Positions 30,243 through 57,326 of a DNA stretch of 64,000 nucleotides are shown in pieces. The translations under genes and the position numbers were made by a program. The number at the start of each line of letters is the position of its first letter. The first letter of the stretch is position 1. The notes under the pieces are model-generated. The model was not told where the DNA came from and did no database searches. It saw only the letters and a program-made list of their open reading frames with translations. The stretch is from an uncultured bacterium (GTDB lineage Bacteria; Omnitrophota; Omnitrophia; Omnitrophales; Aquincolibacteriaceae): the NCBI GenBank assembly GCA_964410905.1, contig CAYPIR010000008.1, positions 19,019 through 83,018 of the forward strand, written 5' to 3'.

Positions 30243-32195
30243 CTAAACCAACTTCAATTCCAGAATAATAAAAACAAGAAGCCCCAAAATCGCGAAAAGT
30301 AAGTAGTTTTGGATAAAGCCCGTCTGAAGACGCTTTGTAATATTGTTTAAAGAATGTGTCCAAGTTCCCGCAAGATTAACGAGAGCATCTATCACATTCG
30401 CGTCAAACCATTGTTTTACGCGGCTAATCCAGCCAGTCGCCGCCGCCGTTCCGTTTACCGCGCCGTCTATAACTTTGGAATCGAATGAAAAAAGTTTTTG
30501 TCCTAAAGCGTGAAAAGGCTGTATTAAAAATTTGGAATAAATTTCATCAATATAGAATTTATTGAGCGATAAGCGGTAGAGAACTGAAAAACGGGAAGCG
30601 ATAGCGGCGGGAACGGATGTTTTTTTCAAATATAAAACAAACGCCAGCCCGATGCCAAGCACCGCCGCCGCGACAGAACAAGCCATTACAAACGCCGAAG
30701 GTTCGTATTCGGGATAGTGAGTCATTTTTGCCAAGAATCCTTGAAACCAATGATGCATAAAAGGCGAGCCGGGAAACCCGACAACAATGGAGCCGATAGC
30801 GAGACACCAAAGCGGCAAAGTCATTACGGCGGGTGATTCATGAGCGTGGACTGCGTGGTTGCGGGCTTTGCCGAAGAATGTTAGGAAAATAAGACGGAAC
30901 ATATAAAACGCGGTCATAAAAGCGGTCAAAAGAAGAATGCCGAACACCCAAAAATTTCCCGCGCCATACGCGGCGAGCAGAATCTCATCTTTAGACCAAA
31001 ATCCCGAAAGCGGCGGGATACCAGCTATAGCAAGACTCGCGATAATAAACGTTGTTGCCGTATGAGGCATTTTTTTAAATAGGCCGCCCATTTCGCGAAT
31101 GTCTTGAACATGTGAACCGTGAATTACGCTTCCCGCGCCGAGGAACAACAATGCTTTAAAAAACGCGTGTGTTATTAAGTGAAATGTTCCCGCGCCGAGG
31201 CTGGAGAGTCCAAGCGCCGCGACCATATAACCTAATTGTGAAATTGTCGAATAAGCGAGAACGCGCTTTATGTCGTTCTGCGTTAATGCGATAAATGCGG
31301 CTCCAAACGCCGTGATTGTTCCTATGGCGGTTACAATTGGAAATATATTGGGAACGGACATAAAAAGAGAAAAAGAGCGCGCTACAAGGAATACTCCCGC
31401 CGCGACCATCGTGGCCGCGTGAATTAACGCGCTGACTGGCGTTGGACCTTCCATAGCGTCAGGAAGCCAAACATGTAAAGGGAATTGCGCGGATTTTCCA
31501 ATCGTTCCGCAAAAAATAAGAAGAGCGGATAAAACAAGAAGTCCCGCTGGGAAAGCTATCGCGGTTCCGTGATGGGCGGTAAGAAGCGACTGGATTTTTG
31601 CGAAATCAAAATATCCTACGGTTGTAAAAAGAGTCAAAAAACCGAGCAGAAACCCGACATCTCCGATACGCGTTGTTAAGAACGCTTTTTTGCTGGCGTT
31701 CGCGGCGGAATCTTTTTCAAAATAAAAACCAATCAAAAGATAAGAGCAGAGTCCCATAATTTCCCATGACATAAAAAACAAAAGATAATTATTGGATATG
31801 ACAAGCGTAAGCATCGCGGACATAAAAAGTGAAACATAGGCAAAAAAACGGCTGTAACGCGCTTCTCCGCGCATATATCCCGAAGCGTAAATTTGAATAA
31901 GCGTTCCGACAATCGTTACCATAAAAAGAAGCGACGCGGAAAGCGGATCTATTAAATAACCGAATTGCAGAGAGTCTTGACCGATAGGAAGCCAAGAGAA
32001 ACTATTCGCAAAATACGCGCCGTTAAAAGCCGCCCAGCAAACAGGAAGCGCTATGACGCAAGAAACCGCGCTCGCGATTATGGAGACGAGCGATGAACGT
32101 TCTTTTAAAAACCGTCCGGCAAAAATATTTATCACAAACGCGATAAACGGCAAAACGGGGACAATGCAAATTTGATTAGCGGTTGCGGCTACCAT
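30243..32195 (-). CDS. nuoL: NADH-quinone oxidoreductase subunit L.
   Basis: 650 aa antiporter-like subunit with a conserved WLPDAMEGPTPVSALIHAATMV segment and a long C-terminal extension typical of NuoL. Confidence 0.9.
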   Translation of the reverse strand: MVAATANQICIVPVLPFIAFVINIFAGRFLKERSSLVSIIASAVSCVIALPVCWAAFNGAYFANSFSWLPIGQDSLQFGYLIDPLSASLLFMVTIVGTLIQIYASGYMRGEARYSRFFAYVSLFMSAMLTLVISNNYLLFFMSWEIMGLCSYLLIGFYFEKDSAANASKKAFLTTRIGDVGFLLGFLTLFTTVGYFDFAKIQSLLTAHHGTAIAFPAGLLVLSALLIFCGTIGKSAQFPLHVWLPDAMEGPTPVSALIHAATMVAAGVFLVARSFSLFMSVPNIFPIVTAIGTITAFGAAFIALTQNDIKRVLAYSTISQLGYMVAALGLSSLGAGTFHLITHAFFKALLFLGAGSVIHGSHVQDIREMGGLFKKMPHTATTFIIASLAIAGIPPLSGFWSKDEILLAAYGAGNFWVFGILLLTAFMTAFYMFRLIFLTFFGKARNHAVHAHESPAVMTLPLWCLAIGSIVVGFPGSPFMHHWFQGFLAKMTHYPEYEPSAFVMACSVAAAVLGIGLAFVLYLKKTSVPAAIASRFSVLYRLSLNKFYIDEIYSKFLIQPFHALGQKLFSFDSKVIDGAVNGTAAATGWISRVKQWFDANVIDALVNLAGTWTHSLNNITKRLQTGFIQNYLLFAILGLLVFIILELKLV

Positions 32196-32497
32196 TTAAG
32201 TAAATTAACCTCATCGGTGTAAATTGTTTTTTTGACGCGATAAAGAGCGAGAACAATCGCGAGTCCGACCGCGGCGGCGGTCGCGGCAAGCGCTATTGTA
32301 AAAAGAGTAAATATTTGTCCTGTTTCGGGAGAAGCGGATGTGTATTTTGAAAAAGCGATTAAATTGATATTTGCCGCGTTAATCATTAATTCAATAGAAA
32401 TCAAAATGCCGATGATGTTTCGGCGGACAAGCGCGCCGTATATGCCGATAGCAAACAACAAAAGAGAAAAAATTAAAATATGCTCAAGCGGTATCAT
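32189..32497 (-). CDS. nuoK: NADH-quinone oxidoreductase subunit K.
   Basis: 102 aa, three TM helices, overlaps nuoL and nuoJ. Confidence 0.85.
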   Translation of the reverse strand: MIPLEHILIFSLLLFAIGIYGALVRRNIIGILISIELMINAANINLIAFSKYTSASPETGQIFTLFTIALAATAAAVGLAIVLALYRVKKTIYTDEVNLLKW

Positions 32498-33015
32498 TTC
32501 TCCTCCGAGGAATCTGTTTTGGCAATAATCACGGTTCCTATAAGCGCGGCGATAAGGACAACAGAGATTACTTCAAAAGGGAAAACATAAATTCCCATCA
32601 ATGCCGTGCCGATTTCCATCACGCCCGCCGATGTTCTTTTCGCGGCTTCGATGATAGGCCAAGGCGTTGTGATAATAAGTTTTGCCATTACCACTACAAA
32701 AGCAAGAGACGCGATTATCGCGATGGGTAGTTGTTTGTTGGTTTGCTTTATTTTTATATTTGAAAAATTTTCCGTGAGCATAATGGCGAAAATAATCAAA
32801 GTGATAATTCCGCCCACATACAAAAGGATTTGAACCGCCGCGACAAACTCGGCGTGAAGAACAACGTAAATTCCCGCGATGCCGATAAGAGCGGCGGCGA
32901 GAGACAGAGCTGAGTGAAAGAGATTTTTAAACACAACTACGCCGAGCGCGAAAGCGAGAATTACGCCAAGTCCCAAATAAATACCAAGTTTTGTTAACAG
33001 CGCAAGAATTTCCAT
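32494..33015 (-). CDS. nuoJ: NADH-quinone oxidoreductase subunit J.
   Basis: 173 aa, hydrophobic; position between nuoH/I and nuoK. Confidence 0.8.
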   Translation of the reverse strand: MEILALLTKLGIYLGLGVILAFALGVVVFKNLFHSALSLAAALIGIAGIYVVLHAEFVAAVQILLYVGGIITLIIFAIMLTENFSNIKIKQTNKQLPIAIIASLAFVVVMAKLIITTPWPIIEAAKRTSAGVMEIGTALMGIYVFPFEVISVVLIAALIGTVIIAKTDSSEEK

Positions 33016-33129
33016 ATAACCTTTTTGACTTTTACAAAGATGACGGACTAAAAAATAACAATAATGACAAACGATGCAGCAAAAAACACGAGGTTTGGCA
33101 TAATGTTGTTTTTTAGTCCGTTGCTATGC

Positions 33130-34299
33130 CTACTCCTCAAACAAATATTCGCGTTTTTGCGGAACAAATGCTTTGTTTACTTTAACAAGCGCTCCAAACA
33201 AAATTGCGATAATAACAACCGAGCTAATCCAACCTATAACAGGTGATACGAAATACCAAAATCCCGCCAAAAGAATATTGGCTAAAACAAGCGGTAATAA
33301 AAATTTCCACGCGAAGTTCATTAAATGGTCAACGCGAAATCTGGGGAAGGTTCCGCGAAACCAAATCATCACGCAAACTAGAAACAACGTTTTCCCGAAA
33401 AACCAAATCCATGACGGCAAAATGGGACCTTGCCAGCCGCCAAGAAAAAGCGTTGCCGCGATACCGCAAAGAGTGAACGCATTCATATATTCAGCCATAT
33501 AAAAGAGCGCGAATTTCATTCCGCTGTATTCAGTATGAAAACCCGCGACAAGTTCGGACTCCGCTTCAGGTAAATCAAATGGCGGACGATTGCATTCAGC
33601 GGTCGCGCATAAGAAAAATACTATGAAGCCAACCAATCCCCAAGGTGTGAAAATAAACCAGTTTAATCCCCAGAACGCGCCTTGTGATAACACAATGTCG
33701 TTAGTTGAAAGACTTCCAGCGATCATAATTGACGGAACTACAGCAAGCGTCATCGGCACTTCATAAGAAACCATTTGAGCCGCAGTTCTCATTCCGCCCA
33801 AAAAAGAATATTTGTTGCGGGACGCCCAGCTTCCCATAAAAATCGGAAGAATTGTAATAGATGAAACGGCAATGAAATAAAGAAGCCCGATGTTGAGATT
33901 GACGGCTGTCATTTTTTCACCGAACGGTACGACTACAAAAATCATTAAAGCGGGAACGACAGTAACGATCGGAGCGAGAAGATGAACAATTTTGTCGGCG
34001 TTTTCAGGAACTATATCTTCTTTTGTGAACATTTTGATACCGTCCGCGATTGGCTGCAAAAGACCCCATTTGCCGACTCGGTTTGGACCAATACGGTTTT
34101 GAATTCGTCCGATGAGTTTTCGTTCTAGCAGAGTGAGATACATCATGATTAGCGGACCGAGACACAAAATTGCCACGCCGCTTATTACGATGGATGCAAC
34201 TCCGATAATCCAATCGGGAAGAAAAAGTCCAAGCAAAGACAAAACCCAACCCTTTGCGATAACAAAAATAAAATTTCCAAAATCGAGAACAGTATGCAT
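33130..34299 (-). CDS. nuoH: NADH-quinone oxidoreductase subunit H.
   Basis: Conserved NuoH segments LLERKLIGRIQNRIGPNRVG and AECNRPPFDLPEAESELVAG. Confidence 0.9.
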   Translation of the reverse strand: MHTVLDFGNFIFVIAKGWVLSLLGLFLPDWIIGVASIVISGVAILCLGPLIMMYLTLLERKLIGRIQNRIGPNRVGKWGLLQPIADGIKMFTKEDIVPENADKIVHLLAPIVTVVPALMIFVVVPFGEKMTAVNLNIGLLYFIAVSSITILPIFMGSWASRNKYSFLGGMRTAAQMVSYEVPMTLAVVPSIMIAGSLSTNDIVLSQGAFWGLNWFIFTPWGLVGFIVFFLCATAECNRPPFDLPEAESELVAGFHTEYSGMKFALFYMAEYMNAFTLCGIAATLFLGGWQGPILPSWIWFFGKTLFLVCVMIWFRGTFPRFRVDHLMNFAWKFLLPLVLANILLAGFWYFVSPVIGWISSVVIIAILFGALVKVNKAFVPQKREYLFEE

Positions 34300-34862
34300 T
34301 ATTTAGTTGTATCCGTTGATTTTGCCTCAGCCGCCGCTTTCTTTTTTTCTTCCGCGAGTTTTCTTTTTTTGTCTACTTCGGCGGCTTTTGTAGGACGTAT
34401 TTTTTGAAAATAGGAATTTGGTTTTGCCAAGTCTTTTATATCAGCGATGAGAGTTGTCTCGCGGTTTGGAACAGCAATTTCAAAAATTTTGTCCATAAAA
34501 ATCGAATCGAACGGGCAGACATCTTCACAAATTCCGCAATTCATACATAAACCTTGATCAATTTTAAATACAGCGGGTTTTCTTACCGGTTTTCCCGCCG
34601 CGTCTTTTGCCATTTCGATATGAATGCATTTTGTCGGACATTCCCGTTCGCAAATCCCGCAAGCGACACAACGAATATTTTCTTCCGTTTCGTCATAAAC
34701 CAAAAAGGGAAGATTACGGAAAGTCTCAATTTCTTTATCGTGTTGTTCGGGATATTCTACCGTTACCAGCCCGCCATTTTCAGGTTTTTTTAAATATGAA
34801 AAAATAAAATTCTTAAGCGTTACCATCATTCCTTTGAAAATGCCCATGCCGAATAAACTCAT
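34299..34862 (-). CDS. nuoI: NADH-quinone oxidoreductase subunit I (2x[4Fe-4S]).
   Basis: Two CxxCxxCxxxCP motifs ([24 protein letters not shown]). K/A-rich C-terminal tail. Confidence 0.9.
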
Positions 34863-35989
34863 CGATCGGTCTCCCCAAGAACAATGTCAATACTGCCGAG
34901 AATAATAATCGCGTCCGCTATTTTCTGTCCCAAACACATTTCTTCTAAGAATGACAAATTGATAAGAGAAGGCGCACGGACATGATAACGCCAAGGCTGC
35001 GGCGAGCCATCGCTTACAAGATAAAATCCAAGCTCTCCTTTAGGAGATTCTGTTCTCGCGTAAGCGTCTCCAACGGCGGGTTTGAAATTGCGCGGCATTT
35101 TTAGATACACGAGAGTTTTCGGGTTTATAAAATCGCCGTTAGGAATTCCGGCTAAAGCTTGCGACAATATTTTTAAACTTTCTCTGATTTCAAGAAGACG
35201 GACGTAATAACGGTCGTAAACATCGCCGACTTTTCCAAGCGGTATTTTAAAATCAAACTTTTTATAAACGCTGTAGCCGTCAATTTTGCGGATGTCGTAA
35301 TTAACGCCCGACGCGCGAAGTATGGGGCCGGAAAGTCCGGCGCCTATCGCGTCGCTCGCTTTTAATATGCCGACATTTTGGCAGCGCATACAAAGAATTT
35401 CGTTTTGTGAAAGAAGCGTTTCAAACTCCTTTAAGAATGACGGGAAACGGTCAACAATTTGTTTTACGCGTTCGAGTTGTTCCTTTGTTATATCGCGTTT
35501 GACGCCGCCGATGCGGAAAAAATTGCACATAAGCCGCGAGCCGGTGATTTCTTCAAACAAATCAAGAATATGTTCGCGTTCGCGGAAAGCGTAGAGAAGA
35601 GGCGTAAAAAACGCGCCTAAATCGTTAAGCATAAATCCAATAACGGTTATGTGATTAACTACTCGGGCAAGTTCTGCCATTATGACGCGTAAATATTCCG
35701 CGCGTTCTGGGACTTCGACATTACCAAGTTTTTCAACCGCCATCGCGTACCCGAAATTATTCGCGAGGGAGTTCACATAATCAAGGCGATCGGTATAAGC
35801 CATGATTGCCGAATAGGGAAGATTTTCCGCGATTTGTTCGTGATTGCGGTGAAGATACCCAAAAACAGGTTTTAGTCCGCAAATTTTCTCGCCTTCCAAT
35901 TGAACGGTCATACGAAACACGCCGTGAGTAGAAGGGTGCTGGGGACCAAAATTCACTTCCAAAGTTGATTTTAAAGTTGTATTTTCCAA
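34859..35989 (-). CDS. nuoD: NADH-quinone oxidoreductase subunit D (49-kDa subunit).
   Basis: N-terminal [14 protein letters not shown] signature; not fused to NuoC. Confidence 0.9.
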
Positions 35990-35995
35990 AATAAT

Positions 35996-36574
35996 TTAAA
36001 CTCTCGGTTGAATCGCCTTTTCACTTATCGCGCGTTTGCCTGACGAACTCAATTCTTTAGCCTTAGCACGCGCTTGTTCCGGGACTTTGACATTGTGTTT
36101 ATCGAGCCAGTCGATGTCGGTCGCCTCCAAAACGTCAGTGTCTTCTTGTATATAATCTTTACGCAAAGGGAAACCGACAAATTCTTCCCACATAAAAAGC
36201 CGTCTTAAATCGGGATGCCCCGAAAATTCAATTCCAAATGTGTCAAATGCCTCGCGTTCCTGAAGTTCCGCGCTTTTGTATAGGGAAACAAGAGAGGGGA
36301 TTGGGGACGAATCTTTTTTGACTCTGACGCGAAGGACAAGTGCGGAGGATTTTTTTTCTATGGAATAAAAATGATAAACAGATTCTAAAAAATCCAAATA
36401 ATCAACAGCCGTGATAGAAGATAAATAATTAAATTTGAGTTTTTCTTTTAAGAACTTTGCGACTTCAAAAATGTCCGCTGGATTTTCCAGCAAAATTGAA
36501 TCTCTCACCAATCTGGACGAAACTTTTGGCAAACTTGTTTTAATTTCTTTTTGAATGATTTCTGCGGTAGACAT
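35996..36574 (-). CDS. nuoC: NADH-quinone oxidoreductase subunit C (30-kDa subunit).
   Basis: Conserved REAFDTFGIEFSGHPDLRRL segment. Confidence 0.85.
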   Translation of the reverse strand: MSTAEIIQKEIKTSLPKVSSRLVRDSILLENPADIFEVAKFLKEKLKFNYLSSITAVDYLDFLESVYHFYSIEKKSSALVLRVRVKKDSSPIPSLVSLYKSAELQEREAFDTFGIEFSGHPDLRRLFMWEEFVGFPLRKDYIQEDTDVLEATDIDWLDKHNVKVPEQARAKAKELSSSGKRAISEKAIQPRV

Positions 36575-36575
36575 T

Positions 36576-37304
36576 TTATATGGTTTTTTCTACTGACGCG
36601 GCAGGTTTTAGGGCGGCTTCTAAATCCGGCGCTTTTAGTTTTTTACCAACAAGAATTGTTTGCCCATAATGCGTTGTTCGGGGATTTTCCGCCGGCGGCT
36701 GCCAAACTTCAGGATTGTATTTAGGAATAAGCCCGTTCGGTCCAAGTTCGGGAATGGGAAATTCGCGTTTTAAACCCTTTTGATACCATTCCGTTTTCAA
36801 AATTTCTTGCGATGCGATTTTCTTTTGCAATTCAATTAAACCGTTTAAAAGAGCTTCAGGGCGCGGCGGGCAGCCGGGAATATGTAAATCTACAGGAATA
36901 AAACGGTCAACACCGCGCAGAACATTATAGCCATCGATGAACGGTCCGCCGGAAATCGCGCAGGCGCCCATCGCTATTACATATTTAGGCTCCGGCATTT
37001 GATTAAACAAGCGGACGACCTGAGGAGTCATTTTTTTTGTAACTGTTCCCGAGATAATCATTAAATCGGCTTGGCGGGGTGAAGCGCGGAAAAGTTCCGC
37101 TCCGAATCTTGCTATGTCGTAACGGGCGCAGGCTGCCGCGATCATTTCAAAGGCGCAGCACGCGAGACCAAACTGCATTGGCCATATAGAAGAGCGGCGG
37201 CCCCAATTGTATAAGAAGTCAAGAGTTGTCCAAATGACACCTTTTGGGGCTAATTCGGCTTGAAGATTTTTATCAACTACACTTGTGTTTTTAGTAAGAT
37301 TCAT
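36576..37304 (-). CDS. nuoB: NADH-quinone oxidoreductase subunit B (20-kDa, N2 cluster).
   Basis: CCAFEM, GACA and PGCPP cysteine motifs. Confidence 0.9.
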
Positions 37305-37320
37305 GAAAGACGGTTAACCT

Positions 37321-37692
37321 TTATTCCCATTCCAGCATCCGCTTTTTCCAGACATAACCAAGTCCAAATGCTAAAATACAGATGAAAATAACCATTTCTA
37401 CGAAGGCAAAAAGCCCAAGTTGTTTGAAGGCAACTGCCCAAGGATAAATAAAAATTGTTTCAATATCAAAAATAACAAATATGAGCGCGAATAAATAATA
37501 TTGAACGCGGTATTGAGTCCATGGATCGCCCTTTGAGGCGAGCCCGCATTCATAGGTCGCTTGTTTTTCCGGATTAGGCTTTTTAGGGGCAAGGAACCAC
37601 GCCAAAACTAGCGGGATAGCCGCGAAGATAAGGGCGAATAGGAAAAAAATGCCGATAAAAAGATATTGGTAAAAGTAGGAACCGCTAGACAT
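37321..37692 (-). CDS. nuoA: NADH-quinone oxidoreductase subunit A.
   Basis: 123 aa, three TM helices, first gene of the operon. Confidence 0.85.
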
Positions 37693-48464: not shown

Positions 48465-49112
48465 ATGAAGAGAATAACGCTTTTAGCAGTTTTGTTTTTA
48501 GTGGTCGGTTCAATTTCAGCATTTGCTTTTGGATTGCCTAAATTAGGCGGCTCAAGTTCTCAAGATGTTGGCGAAGATAAAGCAACGCCGGTAATTGTGG
48601 CGTATACGGCCTCATTAGAATTATTTAAAAAGGCAGAGGCTAGTGCGCTTGAGGCTTTTGGATTTAAGACAGAAGCGGCGATATCGCAAGCAGAGGCTGA
48701 AAGTGCGGGTAAGGGGAATCTAAACTCAGACGATATCAGCAAAAGCGCACAGGTCAGCACGGACGCTCAAAAGTTGATTCTGGAAGCAATCGCCAAAGGT
48801 GAAGTCTTGTCTGATGAAGCAAAAGCAAAGCTGAAAGAATCAGCGGTAAATGCAGGCAAGGGCTTAGTTGCGGAAACCGCCGTTGGTACTTTAGTAGCGG
48901 ATGCTGTTTCGGCAACGCAAACACAAGTTCAGCAACTCTCTTCAAATCCTATGCAACTAGGAGCGGTTAAAGGAAGACTAGATACTTTGCTGACCGTCTC
49001 GAAACTTATTCCTGATGACCTTGTTCAAAAGAAAAATTTATTGTCCGCGTATATCAATTATTTTAAAAGTCAGAATATTGAACTTCCAGCCGATGTAACA
49101 GATTTAATTTAA
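48465..49112 (+). CDS. Hypothetical secreted Ala/Gln/Lys-rich protein (215 aa).
   Basis: Signal peptide MKRITLLAVLFLVVGSISAFA. Low-complexity A/E/K/Q-rich helical-looking body. Confidence 0.5.
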   Translation: MKRITLLAVLFLVVGSISAFAFGLPKLGGSSSQDVGEDKATPVIVAYTASLELFKKAEASALEAFGFKTEAAISQAEAESAGKGNLNSDDISKSAQVSTDAQKLILEAIAKGEVLSDEAKAKLKESAVNAGKGLVAETAVGTLVADAVSATQTQVQQLSSNPMQLGAVKGRLDTLLTVSKLIPDDLVQKKNLLSAYINYFKSQNIELPADVTDLI

Positions 49113-49538
49113 GAGAAAAGTAAGTTTTAAAGATAAGGGCATTAAAGGCTGGGCGATTTTTCGTCCAGCCTTTTTTATTTCTTTAGAAGAGAATAAAGTT
49201 AATTCTTTTTGGAATTTGAAGAGACGCGCTATCGCGCCTTTGCTGGTAGCGCAAGGAAATTTTGTATATTTTTTGATAACGGAAAAATTTTTAGAACCAA
49301 TTAAGTCTTTGCGGAAAACACTTGCGTCGAACGCTACGGCGTTTGCGCCATTCTCAAAATACTCTTTTATGTTTTCCTCCCTAACGCTGTCGCACGCTAA
49401 AAGTTGAATGTCTGAAAATGGCCCGCGAAGTTCTTTAAAATATTTGGGAGTGAAGCAACTAACGGAAAAAACTTTGACCATTGTCGCTCCGCCGTCCCAT
49501 ATTGTGCAGTTCAAAACCTTAATTTGTTCGCGATACAT
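49104..49538 (-). pseudogene. Fragment of a KDPG/KHG aldolase (Eda)-like gene (C-terminal portion only).
   Basis: The translation TMVKVF...PKYFKELRGPFSDIQLL...NIKEYFENGANAVAFDASVFRKDLI aligns with the C-terminal third of Eda. The catalytic N-terminal two-thirds is missing. The ORF tail reads through the convergent terminator. Confidence 0.4.
49145..49178 (+). terminator. Rho-independent terminator ending the six-gene secreted-protein operon.
   Basis: GGCTGG-gcgatttttcgt-CCAGCC stem followed by TTTTTTATTT. Confidence 0.65.
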
Positions 49539-49715: not shown

Positions 49716-49979
49716 ATGTTAGACATAAGACCGGTATCAGATTTGAGAAATAGATTTCCAGAGATTGAAAAAGCTGTCAAAGAGGGAAACCGGTTTACTT
49801 AACAAAAAAATGGTTACGGAGCAATGGTTGTGTTAAGTTTAGAACAATATGAAGATTTGACAAACGATACTGAATTTAAAAAGGATGAGGCGGATGAGTT
49901 TGCGAAGACAAATGATGTTCGCTATGAGCACAAAGACGTTTTTACCCGCCTGAAAAAAAGAGCGACAAAAAATGGATAA
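49716..49979 (+). pseudogene. Frameshifted Phd/YefM-family antitoxin remnant.
   Basis: AGGAGG RBS, then MLDIRPVSDLRNRFPEIEKAVKEG, stopping after 28 codons. The Phd-like continuation KPVYLTK / NGYGAMVVLSLEQYEDL is in other frames, around an A7 run. Confidence 0.55.
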
Positions 49980-50305
49980 AAAATGTAAAGCAGTTTATTT
50001 GCCGCTTTTTGAAAAGGACTTGTCAAAGGCCATTGATTACATCGCGGTTTAATTAAAAAATCCAGCAGCCGTCCTTAAATTAGTTGAAATTGTTGAACCT
50101 CTCATATTTAAAAGACTCGCCGCGCCAACTTTGTTTGAGCCTTATCGATTTATAAAGGATAGACCGAATATTTATTACAGAATATACGCAAAAAATTTTA
50201 CGGTTTTTATGTTGTTATAGAGGATGTGATGGAAGTCCGCCGATTTGTTTGAAGCAAGAGAAACTTATCAAAAATTATTTAAATACGGAGACCGAGTTTT
50301 AGTTA
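49972..50305 (+). pseudogene. Decayed RelE/ParE-family toxin remnant.
   Basis: The ATG overlaps the antitoxin stop. ParE-like N-terminus AVYLPLFEKDLSKAIDYIA, then a stop. Downstream frames carry ...EPYRFIKDRPNIYYRIYAKNF..., interrupted by several stops. Confidence 0.45.
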
Positions 50306-50309: not shown

Positions 50310-51473
50310 TTAACATAGCCGGACTTCGACATTTTTTTGATATTGTTCGCGGAGGATTTTGGCGATGTCGGACACTAAATTGACGCGTATTGAGACGCTT
50401 TTGGGCAGAAGCGGATTTTGATAATAAGGGTTTATGCTTTGTCCAACCGTAAAGTGAATGGCATCGGCGTTCATCATTTCGGCAGCTAGTAATATCGCGG
50501 CGTTTGATCTCGGCGATTTTTTTTCAAATCTAGGCGTGTCTTTCTTTATGAGCTCCAACGTTTTTGAAAGCGTGATGATCCCTTCCGTAACAAGGTCGAC
50601 TCCTTCTAATTCTCCGGGAGGAGGAACATCGCGGTAAGGCTCGTTTATTTTTGCCTCTACTCTACGGCCGATGGTTTTAGCTACGAGGTTGGCGGTAGTT
50701 CCTCCGCAAATTACTTTTCGCCCCTCGGAATGCAAAAACTGGCGGATGTAAAAATCTTGAGAATTTTTATCAACGGGAGGCCCTGTAAAGATGTGTAGAG
50801 ACGAACTTTCGCGGGCGAGAACGCCGACAAAAGTTGTGTCATCTCCGGGTTTTCCGGAATAAAGTTTTTCCGCTTCATCAATTACAAGTTTTACCGCGCG
50901 CGCGGCGCGATGGATTTTTTTTTGAAATGATAATTCTAAAAAACTCGCGATGTTATCCCAGCCCCATCCACATTGATTGTCTTCGCCCAGCCCCGCGTGA
51001 AGCACCCCGTCTGACATAAGCCCCAAAAAGTCGCCTTCAATAATATTTCCTGAAAAAGACATAACTTTTCTTCCAAGTATTTCTGTTGTGACCGTTTCAT
51101 GCCGAAGAATTTTGCCGCCGCGGATATGAAAAAATGGCGGATTGTCGAAGTTTATTACTTGAAAAGTTTTGCTGCGTTCGTTAATCACAAGAGCGGTAAA
51201 GGTCGCATAAGCCATTTTTCGGATTTGGCATATTGGGAGAGTGTCAAGAAGAGTGCGAATAATTTCTTCCAAAGGGATATCGTTCTGAAGCAGTGTCATT
51301 AAAATTTCAGTCGTGAGAGTCGCGAGGATATTCGCTTTGACTCCGCAGCCAAGCCCATCGGAGAGAGCGATCATTGTTTTGCCCGCTTCTTTTACTGTTT
51401 TGATATTGTCGCCGGATAATTCTTCGCCCGATTTGTTAAGACGAGCTTCCGCGACATCATAAAAAAGCGGCAT
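50310..51473 (-). CDS. PP2C-family (SpoIIE-like) serine phosphatase with an unassigned C-terminal domain of about 160 aa.
   Basis: N-terminal PP2C motifs SGDNIKTV, ALSDGLGCG, MSDGVLHAG, GDDTTFVGV. The C-terminal region (ICGGTTANLVAKTIGRR...) is not assignable by eye. Confidence 0.7.
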   Translation of the reverse strand: MPLFYDVAEARLNKSGEELSGDNIKTVKEAGKTMIALSDGLGCGVKANILATLTTEILMTLLQNDIPLEEIIRTLLDTLPICQIRKMAYATFTALVINERSKTFQVINFDNPPFFHIRGGKILRHETVTTEILGRKVMSFSGNIIEGDFLGLMSDGVLHAGLGEDNQCGWGWDNIASFLELSFQKKIHRAARAVKLVIDEAEKLYSGKPGDDTTFVGVLARESSSLHIFTGPPVDKNSQDFYIRQFLHSEGRKVICGGTTANLVAKTIGRRVEAKINEPYRDVPPPGELEGVDLVTEGIITLSKTLELIKKDTPRFEKKSPRSNAAILLAAEMMNADAIHFTVGQSINPYYQNPLLPKSVSIRVNLVSDIAKILREQYQKNVEVRLC

Positions 51474-51973
51474 TAGGATTCTTGCTCCAATGTTTTTAAA
51501 AGTTGAATAAGACTGACCTTTGTGTTTGCCGTTGTTTCGCCAAGCAGACTCGCGATTTCCTGCGCGACTTTCATTTGCTTGTCGACAACTTCATTCACGC
51601 GTTGAATAGTTTGCTTTTTTATTTTCTGAAGTTCGCGCTGTTGCTTCCATTCGCGCGTTGTGTCAACCACGATGCAGGCAATCAGATTGTGATCTTTTAG
51701 AGGGAAAATCACTTCGCGGACATATAGATTATGATTGGGATAATCTTTATTCTTCGCGCGTATAACTTTGTTGGTTTCCCATGCTTGCTGGAAATCCCGC
51801 GCGTCTCCGCGCAAATCCTCAACATGTCTGCCAACTATTTTTTCAGACACGGTTTCAAACATTTGGCAAAGCGCGGGGTTCGCTATTTTGATTTTCATCT
51901 CAAGGTCCACCACGAGCAGCCCGTTAGGATCATATTCCCAAAGAAGTTCCCAAAGCGTTTTTTCTGTAGACAT
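51473..51973 (-). CDS. PAS-domain protein (stand-alone sensor module).
   Basis: PAS-like fold signature LLVVDLEMKIKIANPALCQMFE...GRHVEDL; 166 aa; 1-nt overlap with the phosphatase gene. Confidence 0.6.
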   Translation of the reverse strand: MSTEKTLWELLWEYDPNGLLVVDLEMKIKIANPALCQMFETVSEKIVGRHVEDLRGDARDFQQAWETNKVIRAKNKDYPNHNLYVREVIFPLKDHNLIACIVVDTTREWKQQRELQKIKKQTIQRVNEVVDKQMKVAQEIASLLGETTANTKVSLIQLLKTLEQES

Positions 51974-52065
51974 AAATACCTCACTGTTGATTTATTTTGA
52001 CATTGTATCGGCTACACACATAAAAAACAAAATGTAATTATGCGATCTGCCCGGCATACGAATTT

Positions 52066-52153
52066 CTTGTACAAGCGATTGACTTATTCGCTATATGAGT
52101 TATACTTCGATAAGGAAACATCGATGTATTTTTATCGATATAAATACATCGAT
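52066..52153 (+). promoter_or_regulatory. Putative sigma70-type promoter (TTGACT-16-TATACT) flanked by palindromes: CTTGTACAAG upstream, and a 12-bp inverted repeat ATCGATGTATTT/AAATACATCGAT with four ATCGAT hexamers downstream.
   Basis: Read directly: the 10-bp palindrome at 52066-52075 sits just upstream of the -35 at 52079-52084; -10 at 52101-52106. ATCGAT copies near 52107, 52121, 52135 and 52150; IR arms at 52120-52131 and 52142-52153. Confidence 0.3.
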
Positions 52154-52196
52154 AAAAAAATATTTAATATGACGATTTGAGACAAAAAGGCGCATA

Positions 52197-52877
52197 ATGA
52201 ACACACAAAATGATAAAAAACTGCTGAGTTATCCTTCAATACGGCGAATGCCTTCTTATTTGAGGCTGTTAAAAGAACTTTTGGCGAAGGGAGGGAAGAC
52301 GGTTTCTGCTACTGTTTTGGCGGATGTTCTTGGGCTAGAGTCAATAGTTGTTCGTAAGGATTTTGAGTCGCTTCCTATCATAGGAAAGGCTGGTATCGGT
52401 TATGAGATTCCGGAACTTATAAAAGCTATAGAAGATCATCTAGGGTGGAATAAAGTTACGGACGCGTTTCTGATTGGAACGGGACATCTTGGGACAGCAC
52501 TTTTGGGTTACAGAGGATTTGAGCAATATGGTGTAAGAATTGCGTTGGCGTTTGATGCCGACCCTAAAAAAACTCATCAAACTATAAGTGATATTCAAGT
52601 TAGACCAATCGAAGAGTTGCCGCAGATGGCGGAGAAAATGAAAGTTAAAATAGGGATTTTGACCGTGCCCGCTGAGCAAGCGCAAGGCGTTGCGGAAAAA
52701 ATGGTTGCGGCTGGGATTCGCGGAATTTGGAATTTCGCGCCGGCAAAATTGATGTTGCCGCCTGATGTGGTTGTTCAAAATGAGGATTTGGCTGAGGGCT
52801 TGGCGGTTTTGTCTGTGAAACTTGACAGACTAAAAGCAAAGGCGATGGACGAGAATGTTGAGGGTTTGAGAAGTTAA
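52197..52877 (+). CDS. rex: Redox-sensing transcriptional repressor Rex.
   Basis: N-terminal winged-helix RRMPSYLRLL...VSATVLADVLGL and Rossmann motif LIGTGHLGTAL. Confidence 0.85.
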   Translation: MNTQNDKKLLSYPSIRRMPSYLRLLKELLAKGGKTVSATVLADVLGLESIVVRKDFESLPIIGKAGIGYEIPELIKAIEDHLGWNKVTDAFLIGTGHLGTALLGYRGFEQYGVRIALAFDADPKKTHQTISDIQVRPIEELPQMAEKMKVKIGILTVPAEQAQGVAEKMVAAGIRGIWNFAPAKLMLPPDVVVQNEDLAEGLAVLSVKLDRLKAKAMDENVEGLRS

Positions 52878-52922
52878 GGTTTGATTTATTTATAAAATTT
52901 TTTAAACAAGGGGAGAAAGAGA

Positions 52923-53426
52923 ATGTCAAAGACGATTCTTTTTAGGAAATTTCAAAGAGTGGGAGAAATTCTCGAAGCGCACAATTATAGCGCGTCAAAC
53001 CTGATAGCGATTTTGCAAAAAGTTCAGGAAGAATACCGCTATCTTCCAGAAGAAGTGCTTCTTTATATTGCCGAAATGCTTGAGATTCCGCCGGCGCGTA
53101 TTTACGGCGTCGCGACTTTTTACTCGCATTTTACTCTCAATCCCAAAGGGAAATATTTAATCAGACTTTGCGATGGAACGGCTTGCCATGTCAAACGATC
53201 AACAGGGATTTTAGAAAAACTCCGCGAAAAACTCGGGCTAAACGAAACCAAAATAACAACGGACGATATGCTTTTTACGGTTGAAACAGTGTCTTGTCTT
53301 GGGGCTTGCGGACTTGCTCCGGTAATTATGATCAATCACGACATACACGGACAAATGACGCCGCAAAAAGCCGTAGAACTTGTTGACTCGATTATCGCGA
53401 AGGAGGATACAAATGTCGCAGCTTAA
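52923..53426 (+). CDS. NuoE-like [2Fe-2S] thioredoxin-fold subunit of the NADH-dependent [FeFe] hydrogenase (HydC/HndA-type).
   Basis: Cys motif CDGTACH...CLGACGLAPV. Confidence 0.85.
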   Translation: MSKTILFRKFQRVGEILEAHNYSASNLIAILQKVQEEYRYLPEEVLLYIAEMLEIPPARIYGVATFYSHFTLNPKGKYLIRLCDGTACHVKRSTGILEKLREKLGLNETKITTDDMLFTVETVSCLGACGLAPVIMINHDIHGQMTPQKAVELVDSIIAKEDTNVAA

Positions 53427-55302
53427 TATTGAAATAAAATCTTCCGGCGTTCTGAAACGCAAACTTACTGTATGCGCAGGAACGGCGTGTCGGGCAAACG
53501 GCGCGCTTAAAGTTTACGCGGCGTTTGTTGAAAAAATTAAACAAGCGGGATTTGATGTCGTTGAGTCTTTGTCTGAAGAGAACAAGCACAAGGACGATCC
53601 GAAGGTTTTCAGGACTTCCAAAAGCGGCTGCCAAGGATTTTGTCAAATGGGGCCTCTTGTAACTATTGAGCCGGAGGGCTTTCTCTATGTCAAAGTTCAA
53701 GAATCCGACGTCGTGGAAATTGTCGAGCAAACGCTTGTTAAAAATGAACTTGTAGACCGTCTTCTTTATGTCGATCCCGCGACAAAAGAAAAATATCCTA
53801 AACACGATGAAATTCATTTTTATAAAAAACAATCACGCTCCGTTTTGAAACTTTGCGGCGCGATTGATCCGGAATCCATCGAGGAATATTTTGCTAAAGG
53901 AGGATACGAGGCCTCTAAAAAAGTTTTGACCACAAAAACTCCTGAAGAAGTTTGTAAAGAAATGATGGATTCAGGGCTTCGCGGCCGCGGCGGCGGGGGA
54001 TTTCTCACAGGAAAAAAATGGGATTTAACGCGTCTGCAAAAGGGAGATGTTAAATATCTAATTTGTAATGGCGATGAAGGCGACCCCGGCGCGTTTATGG
54101 ATAGGTCGGTGATGGAAGGAAATCCTCATAGCGTTCTTGAGGGAATGACTATAGCGGCATACGCCATTGGAGCGTCTGAAGGCGTGATTTATGTTCGAGC
54201 GGAATATCCGCTTGCGGTTGAAAATATGCGTAAGGCGGTGGAGAGCGCGCACAGCGCGGGAATGCTCGGTAAAAATTTATTTGGAACTAATTTTAGTTTT
54301 AATTGCCGCGTTGTTGAAGGCGCCGGAGCTTTTGTATGCGGAGAAGAAACCGCGCTTATAGCATCTGTTGAAGGCTGCCGCGGCATGCCTCGTCCTAAAC
54401 CGCCGTTTCCCGCGCAGAGCGGACTTTGGGGAAAGCCGACTTGCATCAACAATGTTGAAACTTTGGCGAGCGTTCCAATCGTATTTCGCATGGGCGCGAG
54501 TGAATTTAAAAAAATCGGCGTGCCGACTTCCACGGGAACAAAAACTTTTGCGCTTACGGGACATGTGGCCAATACCGGACTTATTGAAGTTCCGTTTGGA
54601 ATGACTCTCCGCGAAATCGTTTTTGACATTGGCGGTGGGGTTACGGACGCTAAGGGCAAAATTATGAAAGATGGTTTTAAGGCGGTGCAGATCGGAGGTC
54701 CGTCCGGCGGGTGTCTCACATCTGAGCATTTGGATTTGCCGCTTGAATATGAATCTCTTAAAAAAGTCGGCGCTATGATTGGTTCCGGCGGGCTTGTTGT
54801 TATGAACTGTGATACTTGCATGGTAAACGTAGCCAGATATTTTATGCAATTTACGCAAAATGAATCTTGCGGGAAATGCGTTCTTTGCCGTGAAGGCACA
54901 AAGCAAATGCTGTCGCTTTTAGACGACATAATAGAAGGTCGCGCGACAATGGCGACTTTGGATTTAATGAAAGAACTTGCTGAGGTTGTGCAAAAAGGTT
55001 CTCTTTGCGGTTTAGGGAAAACGGCGCCGAATCCGGTGCTTTCTACCATGAAATATTTTAGAGAAGAATATGAGCAGCATGTCCGCGATAAGTGGTGTCC
55101 GACTGGGGCGTGTAAGTCGCTTGCGCGGCCTGAAATTATCGCCGAAAAATGCTGCGGTTGCGGGATGTGTAAAAAAGTTTGCCCTGTCAGCGCTATTACG
55201 GGAGAAATTAGACAAGCGCACGTGATTAATTCAGCGATTTGCATCAAATGTGGAGCTTGTGCTCAAGCTTGTAAATTTAACGCGATTGTGGGGGTGGCGT
55301 AA
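53413..55302 (+). CDS. NuoF-like flavoprotein subunit of the [FeFe] hydrogenase (HydB/HndC-type), with NADH/FMN site and Fe-S clusters.
   Basis: AAGGAGG RBS. N-terminal 2Fe-2S-like Cys (CAGTACRANG). FMN/NADH motif GLRGRGGGGFLTGKKW. ESCGKCVLCREG. Two C-terminal CxxCxxCxxxCP clusters. Confidence 0.9.
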   Translation: MSQLNIEIKSSGVLKRKLTVCAGTACRANGALKVYAAFVEKIKQAGFDVVESLSEENKHKDDPKVFRTSKSGCQGFCQMGPLVTIEPEGFLYVKVQESDVVEIVEQTLVKNELVDRLLYVDPATKEKYPKHDEIHFYKKQSRSVLKLCGAIDPESIEEYFAKGGYEASKKVLTTKTPEEVCKEMMDSGLRGRGGGGFLTGKKWDLTRLQKGDVKYLICNGDEGDPGAFMDRSVMEGNPHSVLEGMTIAAYAIGASEGVIYVRAEYPLAVENMRKAVESAHSAGMLGKNLFGTNFSFNCRVVEGAGAFVCGEETALIASVEGCRGMPRPKPPFPAQSGLWGKPTCINNVETLASVPIVFRMGASEFKKIGVPTSTGTKTFALTGHVANTGLIEVPFGMTLREIVFDIGGGVTDAKGKIMKDGFKAVQIGGPSGGCLTSEHLDLPLEYESLKKVGAMIGSGGLVVMNCDTCMVNVARYFMQFTQNESCGKCVLCREGTKQMLSLLDDIIEGRATMATLDLMKELAEVVQKGSLCGLGKTAPNPVLSTMKYFREEYEQHVRDKWCPTGACKSLARPEIIAEKCCGCGMCKKVCPVSAITGEIRQAHVINSAICIKCGACAQACKFNAIVGVA

Positions 55303-57326
55303 TGGATAATACAATTAAAACAATAAAAGTTGACGGCATTGAACTTCCAATCGAAGGAGAACGAAACCTTTTGGAAGTAATTAGAAAAGGAGGAATTGAA
55401 ATTCCGACTTTTTGTTATCACTCTGAACTCAGCATTTACGGCGCGTGCCGGTTGTGCATTGTCGAAGTCGAAGGTCGTGGAATTATGGCGTCTTGCTCTA
55501 CGCCGCCTGAATCGGGGCTTAAAGTTCATACGGCAACGGCTGAAGTTCGTAAGATGCGTAAAGTTGGTCTGGAGCTTTTGCTTGCAGGACACGAACAAGA
55601 ATGCACGACGTGTTATAAAAATACAGCTTGCAAACTTCAAACGCTATCCAAGAACTTTGGCATTGAAAAAGTCAGATTTCGTCAAATGCAAAAAAACTTG
55701 CCGTCAGATTTTTCTTCGCCGTCGCTGGTCCGCAATCCTAATAAATGTATTTTATGCGGCGACTGCGTCCGTATGTGCGAAGAAGTGCAGGGGATTGGAG
55801 CGATTGATTTCGTGCATCGCGGGCATAAGGCAATTGTGCTTCCATCGTTTGGCAAAGATTTAGCAAAAGTGGAATGTGTAAATTGCGGACAATGCGCTCG
55901 CGTGTGTCCGACAGGCGCGCTTACGCCTAGGTCTGAAGTGGATGAGGTTTGGAAAGATGTAAACGATCCGACAAAAAGAGTTATTGTTCAGATCGCTCCC
56001 GCCGTGCGCGTCGCACTTGGCGAAGAGTTTGGACTTGAACCCGGCAGTATTTCTACGGGGAAAATGGTAACGGCGCTTCGCATGATGGGCTTTGATGCCG
56101 TTTATGACACGTGCTTTGCCGCGGATCTTACTATAGTTGAAGAGGCGGAAGAATTTGTTCGCCGCATTCAATCCGGAGGAGTTTTTCCGCAATTTACATC
56201 CTGCTGCCCGGCATGGATTAAATATGCTGAGCAATATTATCCTGAAATTTTTAAAAATATTTCTAGTTGTAAATCTCCGCAGCAGATGTTTGGCGCGGCG
56301 GCGAAAGAGGCGCTTGTTAAATCAAGCGGTGTTGAGCGCAAAGATTTTGTGGTTGTATCCATTATGCCCTGCACGGCAAAGAAATTTGAAGCGAAACGTC
56401 CGGAGTTTTTTGTCGATGGAAACCCGGATGTCGATCACGTTTTGACGACTCAGGAGCTTGCGCAGATGATACGCGAACGCGGTATTTGTTTTAATCAACT
56501 TAAGGCGCAGGACTTTGATCACCCGTTCGGCGAAGCCACCGGAGCGGGCGTTATATTTGGAAATTCCGGCGGAGTAACGGAAGCGGCGCTGAGGTATGTT
56601 GTGGAGAAAATAACTAATCAGCCTCTCCAGAATGTTGAGTTTAAGGAAGTTCGCGGCGAGGATGGCGTGCGCGAAGCGAGTCTTAATGTTGCGGGAAAAA
56701 CTGTGAATGTAGCGATAGCGTTTGGGCTCGCGAACGCGAAGCTGCTCTGCGATCAAGTGAAAAAAGGCGAAAGTAAATATCATTTGATAGAAGTTATGGC
56801 ATGCCCCGGAGGCTGTGTTGGAGGTGCCGGGCAGCCCGTTGTTTTAACGGGAGATACGCGTCGTAAGCGCGCTAAGGGGCTTTATGACTCGGACAAGATG
56901 AAGAAGGATCACAAGGCTCAAGAAAATGCCGAGATAAAAAAACTTTATGCTGATCACATCGGCGAAATAGGCGGCGCGAAAGCGCATCAGCTTTTGCATA
57001 CGCATTATCATAATCGCAGAAGATTTACGTCTGAAGGGTTGCCGCTTATTAAGAGCGACGCGCCGGAGCATGTCGATGTCGAGGTCTGCGTTGGGACGGC
57101 GTGTCACACGCGTGGAGCTGAGAGTCTTTTAAGCGGACTTGTTAAATATGTGGAAGAGGCGAAGTTAAAAAACATTGTTAACATTAAAGGAACATTTTGT
57201 TTTGAAAATTGTGGGAAAGGCCCAAGCGTCAGAATTGGCGATAAAATTTATAACGAATGCACGCTTGCTTCCACGAAAGAAATTTTAGACAAGCAAATTT
57301 CCGCGTTATCGCTTAAAAACTCTTAA
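55302..57326 (+). CDS. hydA: [FeFe] hydrogenase catalytic subunit (NuoG-like N-terminus; H-cluster domain; C-terminal thioredoxin-like 2Fe-2S domain).
   Basis: H-cluster motifs TSCCPAW (L1), MPCTAKKFE (L2) and EVMACPGGCVGGAGQP (L3), with N-terminal 2Fe-2S/4Fe-4S Cys clusters. Confidence 0.9.
   Translation: MDNTIKTIKVDGIELPIEGERNLLEVIRKGGIEIPTFCYHSELSIYGACRLCIVEVEGRGIMASCSTPPESGLKVHTATAEVRKMRKVGLELLLAGHEQECTTCYKNTACKLQTLSKNFGIEKVRFRQMQKNLPSDFSSPSLVRNPNKCILCGDCVRMCEEVQGIGAIDFVHRGHKAIVLPSFGKDLAKVECVNCGQCARVCPTGALTPRSEVDEVWKDVNDPTKRVIVQIAPAVRVALGEEFGLEPGSISTGKMVTALRMMGFDAVYDTCFAADLTIVEEAEEFVRRIQSGGVFPQFTSCCPAWIKYAEQYYPEIFKNISSCKSPQQMFGAAAKEALVKSSGVERKDFVVVSIMPCTAKKFEAKRPEFFVDGNPDVDHVLTTQELAQMIRERGICFNQLKAQDFDHPFGEATGAGVIFGNSGGVTEAALRYVVEKITNQPLQNVEFKEVRGEDGVREASLNVAGKTVNVAIAFGLANAKLLCDQVKKGESKYHLIEVMACPGGCVGGAGQPVVLTGDTRRKRAKGLYDSDKMKKDHKAQENAEIKKLYADHIGEIGGAKAHQLLHTHYHNRRRFTSEGLPLIKSDAPEHVDVEVCVGTACHTRGAESLLSGLVKYVEEAKLKNIVNIKGTFCFENCGKGPSVRIGDKIYNECTLASTKEILDKQISALSLKNS

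Follow-up and report, generated by a model that had tools for sequence, protein, structure and literature searches.

A gene pair of an uncultured Omnitrophota bacterium, encoding a stand-alone PAS protein and a PP2C-type Ser/Thr phosphatase and divergent from the genes for Rex and a trimeric [FeFe] hydrogenase (rex-hydC-hydB-hydA), is by its sequence the H-cluster-less counterpart of the cassette formed by a [2Fe-2S] ferredoxin (Fdx), the hydrogenase-like protein HydS and a PP2C phosphatase, a designation that implies neither loss nor gain of the H domain. The pair lies on a 64-kb stretch of contig CAYPIR010000008.1, hereafter the window, which is the part of this genome that was covered and to which all positions refer unless another locus is named. 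Adjacency of such PAS/PP2C pairs to hydrogenase genes is not a matter of chance. The list of open reading frames (ORFs) and family scans placed the PAS and PP2C genes on the minus strand and rex-hydC-hydB-hydA on the plus strand, with the following features:

50310–51473, minus strand: PP2C phosphatase, 387 amino acids (aa) (Pfam SpoIIE)
50313–50810, minus strand: family-specific alpha/beta C-terminal domain (CTD) of the phosphatase, residues 222–387 (conserved motifs, AlphaFold2 (AF2) model)
50811–51473, minus strand: PP2C (SpoIIE/RsbU-type) Ser/Thr phosphatase domain, residues 1–221 (Pfam SpoIIE)
51473–51973, minus strand: stand-alone PAS protein, 166 aa (PAS_9, TIGR00229)
52079–52153, plus strand: putative shared control region (promoter-like site and hexamer array)
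52197–52877, plus strand: Rex (NCBIfam NF003994; Pfam Put_DNA-bind_N, CoA_binding)
52923–53426, plus strand: HydC, NuoE-like [2Fe-2S] subunit (Pfam 2Fe-2S_thioredx, 1.2e-51)
53413–55302, plus strand: HydB, NuoF-like FMN/NADH subunit (Pfam Complex1_51K, NADH_4Fe-4S, 2Fe-2S_thioredx, Fer4)
55302–57326, plus strand: HydA, catalytic [FeFe] hydrogenase subunit (NCBIfam FeFe_hydrog_A6; Pfam Fe_hyd_lg_C, 1e-98)

An earlier sequence-only reading of this DNA had proposed six genes here, and all six were recovered at the same coordinates in the ORF list and the Pfam/NCBIfam scans. The stop codon of the PAS gene overlaps the start codon of the PP2C gene (TAATG), and the two therefore constitute one translationally coupled operon.

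The N-terminal part of the phosphatase matched SpoIIE (PF07228) over residues 30–216 with 62.8 bits against a cutoff of 25 (E 5.6e-17). Foldseek searches with a full-length AF2 model (pLDDT 83) returned PP2C matches only, that is, structures of the SpoIIE and RsbU/RsbX types, including 3pu9, 5mqh and 5ucg at E 1e-16 to 1e-14. Residues D22, D39, D155 and D211/D212 align with the SpoIIE motifs SGD, SDGMG, MSDG and DDMT, whose aspartates we take to be the metal-binding residues of SpoIIE, and are invariant in an alignment of 40 homologues in which both halves of the protein are strongly conserved (mean column identity 73%). With all four of these Asp motifs intact, the protein is predicted to be a competent phosphatase. 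A protein search retrieved full-length homologues of ∼386–388 aa with 49–72% identity from Omnitrophota-like metagenome bins, many filamentous cyanobacteria, Anaerolineae and other sources.

In contrast to the phosphatase domain, the CTD showed no Pfam match at E ≤ 10, no NCBIfam match and no PDB sequence-profile match. An AF2 model of the CTD only (residues 222–387; pLDDT 83, pTM 0.81) is an alpha/beta sandwich in which strands alternate with helices, and its comparison with PDB by Foldseek yielded nothing significant, the best match being methylglyoxal synthase at E 0.012 with all TM scores below 0.5, so that the modelled fold looks generic, weakly resembling a flavodoxin/methylglyoxal-synthase-like sandwich. 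The motifs FTGPP, CGGTT.N, PP.G, TEGI.T and G..N..YQNPLLPK..SIR are invariant. A profile search of 1.84 billion representatives retrieved 1074 clusters (50% identity) at E ≤ 1e-3 and 728 at E ≤ 1e-10, in which the CTD is mostly the C-terminal end of proteins of ∼380–405 aa. A minority of homologues are stand-alone proteins of ∼160–180 aa that begin at the TGPP strand (P0144, P0145, P0152 and P0239), and these likewise match no Pfam or NCBIfam family. The sequence-only reading had noted the domain as extra and unassigned; it is a regular feature of the phosphatase family and not special to the window gene. As the profile search shows it to be typical of that family and common to HydS-linked phosphatases, the possibility raised in the same reading that it would prove to be an unrelated enzyme therefore falls away. 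The CTD is an undescribed autonomous domain and a hallmark of these phosphatases.

More distant phosphatases of the CTD family, of 392–413 aa and from Ignavibacteria, Bacillota, Bacteroidota, Acidobacteriota and Wallbacteria, led to the kinship with HydS. In all five loci examined, such a phosphatase is encoded directly downstream of a 575–586-aa HydS-type protein with Fer4, Fe_hyd_lg_C, FeS/PF04060 and PAS domains, and the gene before HydS encodes an 84–95-aa ferredoxin in four of the five (a 116-aa ORF without Pfam match in L097). These cassettes follow either rex or rex-hydCBA, or else precede an HfsD/HydA2-like hydrogenase. The window phosphatase aligned with the HydS-linked phosphatase P0319 over its full length including the CTD (34% identity, 390 columns, E 3e-70), and the CTD profile retrieved both types, which have the motifs TGPP, CGGTT, TEG and G..IN..Q.P.LP...IR in common. 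Phosphatase identity ranged from 42 to 99.7% within the PAS-only type, was at least 36.8% within the HydS type and only 27.7–40.3% between the two, and by this measure the two subfamilies are discrete. Thus, the window phosphatase has the PP2C-CTD architecture of the HydS-linked enzymes, while the gene upstream of it encodes a 166-aa PAS-only protein in place of HydS.

The PAS protein itself scored 26.8 bits with PAS_9, just below the cutoff of 27, and 23.7 bits with TIGR00229, above the cutoff of 22.9. As the sequence-only reading had held, it carries no H-cluster domain: Pfam/NCBIfam scans gave no Fe_hyd_lg_C, Fer4 or FeS match. Its residues 16–165 align with residues 421–569 of HydS, including the terminal helix, at 24–26% identity (BLASTP, E 4e-9 and 5e-12), and it thus possesses the C-terminal PAS domain and conserved terminal helix of HydS, with the helix motif LLGE..A.T. 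Unlike HydS, it lacks the H-cluster domain (PF02906), the N-terminal accessory [4Fe-4S] domains and the C-terminal Cx2Cx4Cx16C motif, and is therefore predicted to be incapable of binding or splitting H2 itself. Across 80 orthologues the conserved PAS motifs are LW..LWEYDPNGL, VNPAFC and VNEVVD.QMKV.QEIAGLLGETTAETKVSLL, the last forming the invariant C-terminal helix. The protein has two cysteines, C36 and C100, the former lying in VNPAFC and being present in 97% of the 80 orthologues. The helix Thr of the ‘A(E/D/N)T’ motif is common to the PAS family and the two aligned HydS sequences; that it serves as a phospho-acceptor is speculation on our part.

The ferredoxins of the two cassette types are likewise related, with 45% identity between a PAS-only-cassette and a HydS-cassette ferredoxin, and it is the homology of all three components, PAS, phosphatase and ferredoxin, from which the kinship with the HydS cassette stated at the outset follows. 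The ‘reduced circuit’ proposed in the sequence-only reading is hence borne out in so far as the PAS protein aligns with the HydS C-terminus and relatives of the phosphatase (∼34% identity) sit after HydS in five of five loci. The likeness extends to the small thioredoxin-like [2Fe-2S] ferredoxin encoded upstream in most PAS-only lineages and to the neighbours, namely rex, hydCBA and HfsD-like hydrogenases. The PAS-only version differs in its separate phosphatase subfamily, whose identity to the HydS type does not exceed 40%, in its occurrence in cyanobacterial [NiFe] hox operons and, in the window's clade, in the lack of the ferredoxin gene too.

The association of HydS with PP2C phosphatases is already known, and carries the label ‘phosphatase-linked group C3’ in HydDB. 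The Fdx-HydS-PP2C cassette accompanies the group C (M2f) ‘sensory’ [FeFe] hydrogenases, with HfsA-HfsB-HfsC(-HfsD) of Thermoanaerobacterium saccharolyticum and HydS of Ruminococcus albus and Thermotoga maritima as known cases, and the order observed here matches the hfsABC(D) layout of T. saccharolyticum. In Thermoanaerobacterium hfsABCD, the hydrogenase HfsB contains a PAS domain, HfsC is homologous to serine phosphatases and HfsD resembles HydA2 (PMC11837493, PMC5707799). Deletion of hfsB raises hydrogenase activity and adhE transcripts, and deletions of hfsC and hfsD behave differently (PMC5707799), genetics that fit a regulatory role of the HydS version. Our literature search found no description of the PAS-only variant, of a cassette between hoxH and hoxW in cyanobacteria, of Rex-ferredoxin fusions or of the phosphatase CTD as a family. 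In three Hfs-like loci (L093:9390–11101, L096:8199–9891 and L082:11174–12931), a protein of 85–97 aa is encoded between the phosphatase and the HfsD/HydA2-like gene; the L082 protein looks like a second thioredoxin-like [2Fe-2S] domain, and those of L093 and L096 are without Pfam match.

In order to define the genomic context of the PAS-only pair, a scan of species-representative genomes was used, which returned at least 568 stretches encoding relatives. The best-scoring 80 of them, a set biased towards cyanobacteria, were analysed with gene calls from a simple ORF finder and BLASTP with the window and Arthrospira proteins; 42 of these loci, each from a different species, were well flanked (at least 7 kb upstream and at least 5 kb downstream). 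The PAS gene adjoined the phosphatase gene in 76 of the 80 loci, with three of the four exceptions at contig ends, and in all 42 well-flanked loci. The sole exception not at a contig end is a Planktothrix metagenome-assembled genome (L036:1–8931), in which the phosphatase gene is followed by hoxW and no PAS or ferredoxin gene was detectable in the ∼8.9 kb upstream. A gene for a ∼90-aa ferredoxin was found upstream in 65 of the 80 loci (38 of the 42), a NuoF-type gene in 43, hoxW in 35, hoxH in 33, hydA in 12 and rex in 7 of the 80, and in none of the 80 did the gene upstream of the phosphatase encode an H-cluster domain. Among the well-flanked loci, a hydrogenase catalytic subunit was encoded within 10 kb in 29, a NuoE/F-type gene in 30, one or the other in 31 and any hydrogenase-related gene, hoxW counted, in 37. 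The linkage of the pair to hydrogenase genes, on which the sequence-only reading had staked its proposal, thus held, the synteny being kept across at least six phyla. One further match nominally from Actinomycetota (P0023) has a typical cyanobacterial hox/PFOR (pyruvate:ferredoxin oxidoreductase) context, may be a binning error and was not counted as a separate phylum.

The order of the genes varied with the lineage. In the window's Omnitrophota clade (L011–L013 and L021), hydA-hydB-hydC-rex is divergent from PAS-PP2C and no ferredoxin gene is present, and contig look-ups showed this divergent layout to recur in relatives at ∼69% identity. The cyanobacteria that carry the cassette have it within the hox operon, between hoxH and hoxW (hoxEF(hcp)UYH-Fdx-PAS-PP2C-hoxW); they include Arthrospira/Limnospira, Planktothrix, Coleofasciculus and Oscillatoria as well as numerous others. 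In Arthrospira, hoxE-hoxF-hcp-hoxU-hoxY-hoxH is followed by a 92-aa ORF, a 167-aa PAS gene, a 388-aa SpoIIE-family gene and a 159-aa ORF; the CxxxxC...CxxxC pattern of the 92-aa ORF and its weak PF01257 match led us to assign it as a thioredoxin-like [2Fe-2S] ferredoxin, and the 159-aa ORF was assigned, from its sequence, as HoxW. The ‘three ORFs between hoxH and hoxW’ of Anabaena PCC 7120 were also considered but, with an acetyl-CoA synthetase gene among those flanking them, probably represent something other than this cassette. Moduliflexus has Fdx-PAS-PP2C-NuoE-NuoF-HydA and Planctomycetes have Rex-Fdx-PAS-PP2C-(2Fe-2S) followed by an HfsD-like hydrogenase, while Chloroflexota show either NuoE-NuoF-HydA-Fdx-PAS-PP2C or 4xCBS-HoxE-HoxF-Fdx-PAS-PP2C. 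The latter arrangement, in which the HoxE and HoxF proteins are HoxE-like and HoxF-like, was seen at L070:5659–11152 and L075:6005–11158 and has no catalytic subunit within 10 kb, which suggests that the cassette may work with the NuoE/F diaphorase module and not with the H2-activating subunit. One Anaerolineae locus carries Fdx-PAS-PP2C with no hydrogenase nearby. The proposal that the pair is a candidate module for a bifurcating-type [FeFe] hydrogenase therefore stands as regards linkage to HydABC and not as regards exclusivity, since the cassette also occurs in cyanobacterial [NiFe] hox operons; similarly, a two-gene module is correct for the window's clade, whereas the usual cassette has the ∼90-aa [2Fe-2S] ferredoxin as a third member.

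This third member is connected both with the hydrogenase and with Rex. By sequence comparison, the cassette ferredoxin is a paralogue of the C-terminal [2Fe-2S] domain of HydA (E ∼1e-13). In the Omnitrophota bin L060, Rex and, in frame behind it, the cassette ferredoxin are encoded by a single ORF (L060:8568–9467). Such Rex-Fdx fusions form seven clusters of 299–302 aa with 48–100% identity from independent Omnitrophota assemblies; five of the seven clusters match Pfam Put_DNA-bind_N, CoA_binding and 2Fe-2S_thioredx together, and all three available contexts (L060; L094, 8001–8900; L095, 8001–8906) have the order hydC-hydB-hydA-[Rex-Fdx]-PAS-PP2C. The fusion is thus real and recurrent. Rex adjoins the cassette also in loci of Planctomycetes, Ignavibacteria and Bacillota. 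The fused [2Fe-2S] domain of HydA was considered as a replacement for the ferredoxin missing in the window's clade and rejected: it is 42% identical to the C-terminus of L091 HydA and 28–33% identical to cassette ferredoxins, and it coexists with a cassette ferredoxin, either separate or fused to Rex, in L060, L091, L094 and L095. It is an ordinary HydA C-terminus, and we therefore make no claim for it as a ferredoxin substitute.

The hydrogenase genes of the window agree with the assignment, made in the sequence-only reading, to the trimeric NADH/ferredoxin-dependent (bifurcating-type) enzymes, for which HydDB group A3 would be expected, to judge from the contiguous HydC, HydB and HydA genes, the H-cluster motifs and the NuoG-like N-terminus of HydA. 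HydA scored 787 bits against a cutoff of 765 with the NCBIfam model ‘NADH-dependent [FeFe] hydrogenase, group A6’, and its translation contains the H-cluster motifs TSCCPAW, MPCTAKKFE and EVMACPGGCVGGAGQP; further Pfam matches are Fe_hyd_SSU and Fer2_4, and residues 590–664 constitute the C-terminal thioredoxin-like [2Fe-2S] domain (2Fe-2S_thioredx). HydB, 629 aa long in the public gene call, begins, according to Pfam, with a thioredoxin-like 2Fe-2S domain and also contains the FMN domain, NADH_4Fe-4S and, towards its C-terminus, two Fer4 ([4Fe-4S]) domains. Rex reached 262 bits against a cutoff of 130 for the NCBIfam equivalog NF003994 and thus qualifies as a true Rex in that scheme.

Elsewhere in the window, a complex-I-type operon, nuoA-B-C-D-I-H-J-K-L-M-N (27180–37692, minus strand), lacks genes for NuoE, NuoF and NuoG; Pfam confirmed its 20, 30 and 49 kDa subunits, NuoH, an NuoI-like subunit, NuoL and NuoN, and the remaining genes were assigned by size and order. 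HydC and HydB are the only NuoE/NuoF homologues of the window. A 110-aa 2x[4Fe-4S] ferredoxin, not of the thioredoxin-like [2Fe-2S] kind, is encoded 47 kb off (3129–3461, plus strand) and is a possible electron partner of the hydrogenase. On the other side of the pair, between the PP2C gene and a 144-aa ORF, a frameshifted Phd/YefM-type antitoxin gene (∼49716–50100, plus strand; PF02604 6e-11 when joined) is followed by a short toxin-like remnant; the 144-aa ORF (49104–49538), which matches KDPG aldolase only weakly and in part, may be a gene fragment.

The 224 bp between the PAS gene and rex were searched for control elements. The best promoter match of the region is TTGACT-16-TATACT at 52079–52106 (10 of 12 positions), after which four TTCGAT/ATCGAT hexamers follow with an exact 14-bp period at 52106, 52120, 52134 and 52148 (to 52153). 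In four Omnitrophota relatives (L011, L012, L013 and L021), this hexamer array is the sole strongly conserved block of the rex/PAS intergenic region. Since it is conserved between the divergent operons, both therefore probably share an operator, and the ATCGAT array is probably an operator-like element common to the two. Like the Rex-controlled hydrogenase operons of anaerobes, the locus has rex, with its score above the equivalog cutoff, directly upstream of hydCBA. Unlike in those operons, the canonical Rex operator TTGTGAA-N4-TTCACAA found no match at up to three mismatches in 51974–52196, where the conserved array stands instead; across the whole window, nine matches at this threshold compare with 6.9 expected. 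A further departure from the usual Rex operons is the C-terminal [2Fe-2S] ferredoxin domain carried by the Rex of a sister clade.

Two other known systems offer points of comparison. RsbU, RsbP and SpoIIE belong to the same PP2C subfamily and have the same fold as the window phosphatase (Foldseek 5mqh, 5ucg and 3w40), their Asp motifs align with its own, and regulation by a sensor module is plausible by this likeness; a PAS domain is found at the N-terminus of RsbP, whose partner is RsbQ. The window protein differs in that its PP2C domain is N-terminal and followed by an extra domain, its PAS module is a separate polypeptide, and its context is one of hydrogenase and not sigma-factor genes, with no linked STAS substrate or RsbW/SpoIIAB-type kinase. 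The HoxBC-HoxJ-HoxA system of Ralstonia eutropha, with a regulatory [NiFe] hydrogenase, resembles the pair in that dedicated signalling, with a PAS-containing transducer, is encoded together with hydrogenase genes. Its output, in contrast, is through a histidine kinase and response regulator and its sensor is truly H2-splitting, and there is no sequence relationship to the window proteins, as has been stated likewise for Hfs (PMC5707799).

Taken together, we consider it reasonably probable that the pair is a redox-gated PAS-PP2C phosphatase that acts with Rex on hydrogenase expression, and less likely on hydrogenase activity. The PAS protein would bind the phosphatase and gate its activity, perhaps through helices near the metal site by analogy with the SpoIIE/RsbU-family phosphatases. 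The gating would follow the cellular redox or H2 status, in most lineages by way of the small thioredoxin-like [2Fe-2S] ferredoxin; as the ferredoxin gene is missing in the window's clade, the PAS protein would there receive the signal either directly, through the conserved Cys36, or from the paralogous [2Fe-2S] domains that the hydrogenase itself carries. The phosphatase would then dephosphorylate a Ser/Thr-phosphorylated target encoded outside the cassette, and this output would combine with that of Rex, as the NADH sensor at the promoter region common to both operons, to set the expression of HydABC or, less likely, its activity directly.

Several observations weigh against this proposal. 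To our knowledge, cyanobacteria generally lack Rex, so that an output centred on Rex cannot hold for all lineages. The window's clade has no gene for the proposed input ferredoxin, the ATCGAT array is not the canonical Rex operator, and the sequence does not allow ligand binding by the PAS domain to be predicted. All-against-all clustering of the neighbours of ∼85 loci (±9 kb) revealed no recurrent kinase, STAS protein or other candidate substrate, the only recurrent families being the Fdx, PAS, hydrogenase, hoxW and PFOR genes, and many of the ‘families’ in this clustering being antisense shadow ORFs. Likewise, the checked signalling genes of the window are all classical histidine kinases and response regulators, with no Ser/Thr kinase or STAS gene among them. 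Partner switching in its usual form, with a linked STAS substrate and a HATPase_c_2 Ser kinase, was hence evident neither at the loci nor among the checked window genes. Signal transduction even for HydS has been stated to be unknown (PMC11376134, 2024).

The strongest alternative, although in our view a rather unlikely one, is direct post-translational control, in which the phosphatase would act on HydB/HoxF, HydC/HoxE or mobile [2Fe-2S] domains and switch the activity or coupling mode of the enzyme. NuoE/NuoF-type genes are indeed the most constant neighbours (30 of 42 loci), and the Chloroflexota operons with CBS, HoxE and HoxF lack a catalytic subunit within 10 kb, although HydS-type cassettes also stand beside monomeric HfsD/HydA2-type enzymes without NuoE/F. 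The position of the cyanobacterial cassette inside the structural operon, between hoxH and hoxW, would suit an action on the enzyme, and the paralogy of the cassette ferredoxin with the HydA C-terminal domain suggests docking on it, whereas the Rex fusions point to control at the DNA level. According to the T. saccharolyticum authors, part of the hfs effect seems to be post-transcriptional (PMC5707799); on the other hand, in the literature that we searched no Hox or HydABC subunit is reported to be phosphorylated, and no kinase is linked to the cassette.

We regard it as improbable that the cassette is an accessory or maturation factor with no signalling function, engaged in assembly, repair or reactivation of the hydrogenase/diaphorase, for example by Fe-S or flavin handling or by reactivation after exposure to O2. 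This would account for the position of the cyanobacterial cassette immediately upstream of the maturation protease gene hoxW (35 of 80 loci), for the Fe-S protein in the cassette, for the want of a kinase partner and for the Rossmann-like fold of the CTD model, possibly a ligand-binding one. It is at odds with the four conserved Asp motifs of the PP2C domain, and the PAS domain, the homology to the sensory HydS cassette and the Rex fusion all point to signalling; moreover, the phenotype of the hfsB deletion, in which hydrogenase activity rises, is regulatory (PMC5707799), and no hydrogenase gene stands within 10 kb of the cassette in five of the 42 well-flanked loci. A generic partner-switching or stress phosphatase placed beside hydCBA by chance, without functional tie, is very improbable and disfavoured: SpoIIE/RsbU-type phosphatases do usually work in partner-switching cascades, and L035, L037, L063, L067 and L077 lack a hydrogenase gene within 10 kb, yet no STAS or RsbW-type gene recurs nearby and the hydrogenase synteny is kept in Omnitrophota, Cyanobacteria, Chloroflexota, Planctomycetota and Moduliflexus despite a protein identity of only 42–70%.

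Returning to the redox-gated phosphatase, a more specific version can be put forward tentatively, and we hold it possible rather than probable: the PAS-only cassette, having given up an H2-splitting site of its own, may read the electron chain of the [FeFe] HydABC or [NiFe] HoxEFUYH enzyme through a thioredoxin-like [2Fe-2S] module, which may even be fused to Rex, and convert the redox state of that chain into Ser/Thr dephosphorylation. If this is true, the bidirectional hydrogenases of cyanobacteria would be under a previously unrecognized phospho-regulatory control, and the cassettes would give a route to how ‘sensory hydrogenases’ pass on their signal. The persistence of a PAS-PP2C-CTD core without an H-cluster separates the output machinery from H2 sensing and leaves a minimal system of two proteins whose reconstitution should be easier, and the CTD, with ∼1000 clusters at 50% identity, is a candidate new domain family. 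Furthermore, the Rex-[2Fe-2S] fusions suggest a direct link of NADH sensing with Fe-S redox sensing at hydrogenase promoters, and the cassette in the hox operons suggests an extra layer of control on the bidirectional hydrogenases, one that our literature search did not find described and that matters both for the production of H2 and for fermentation in mats and blooms.

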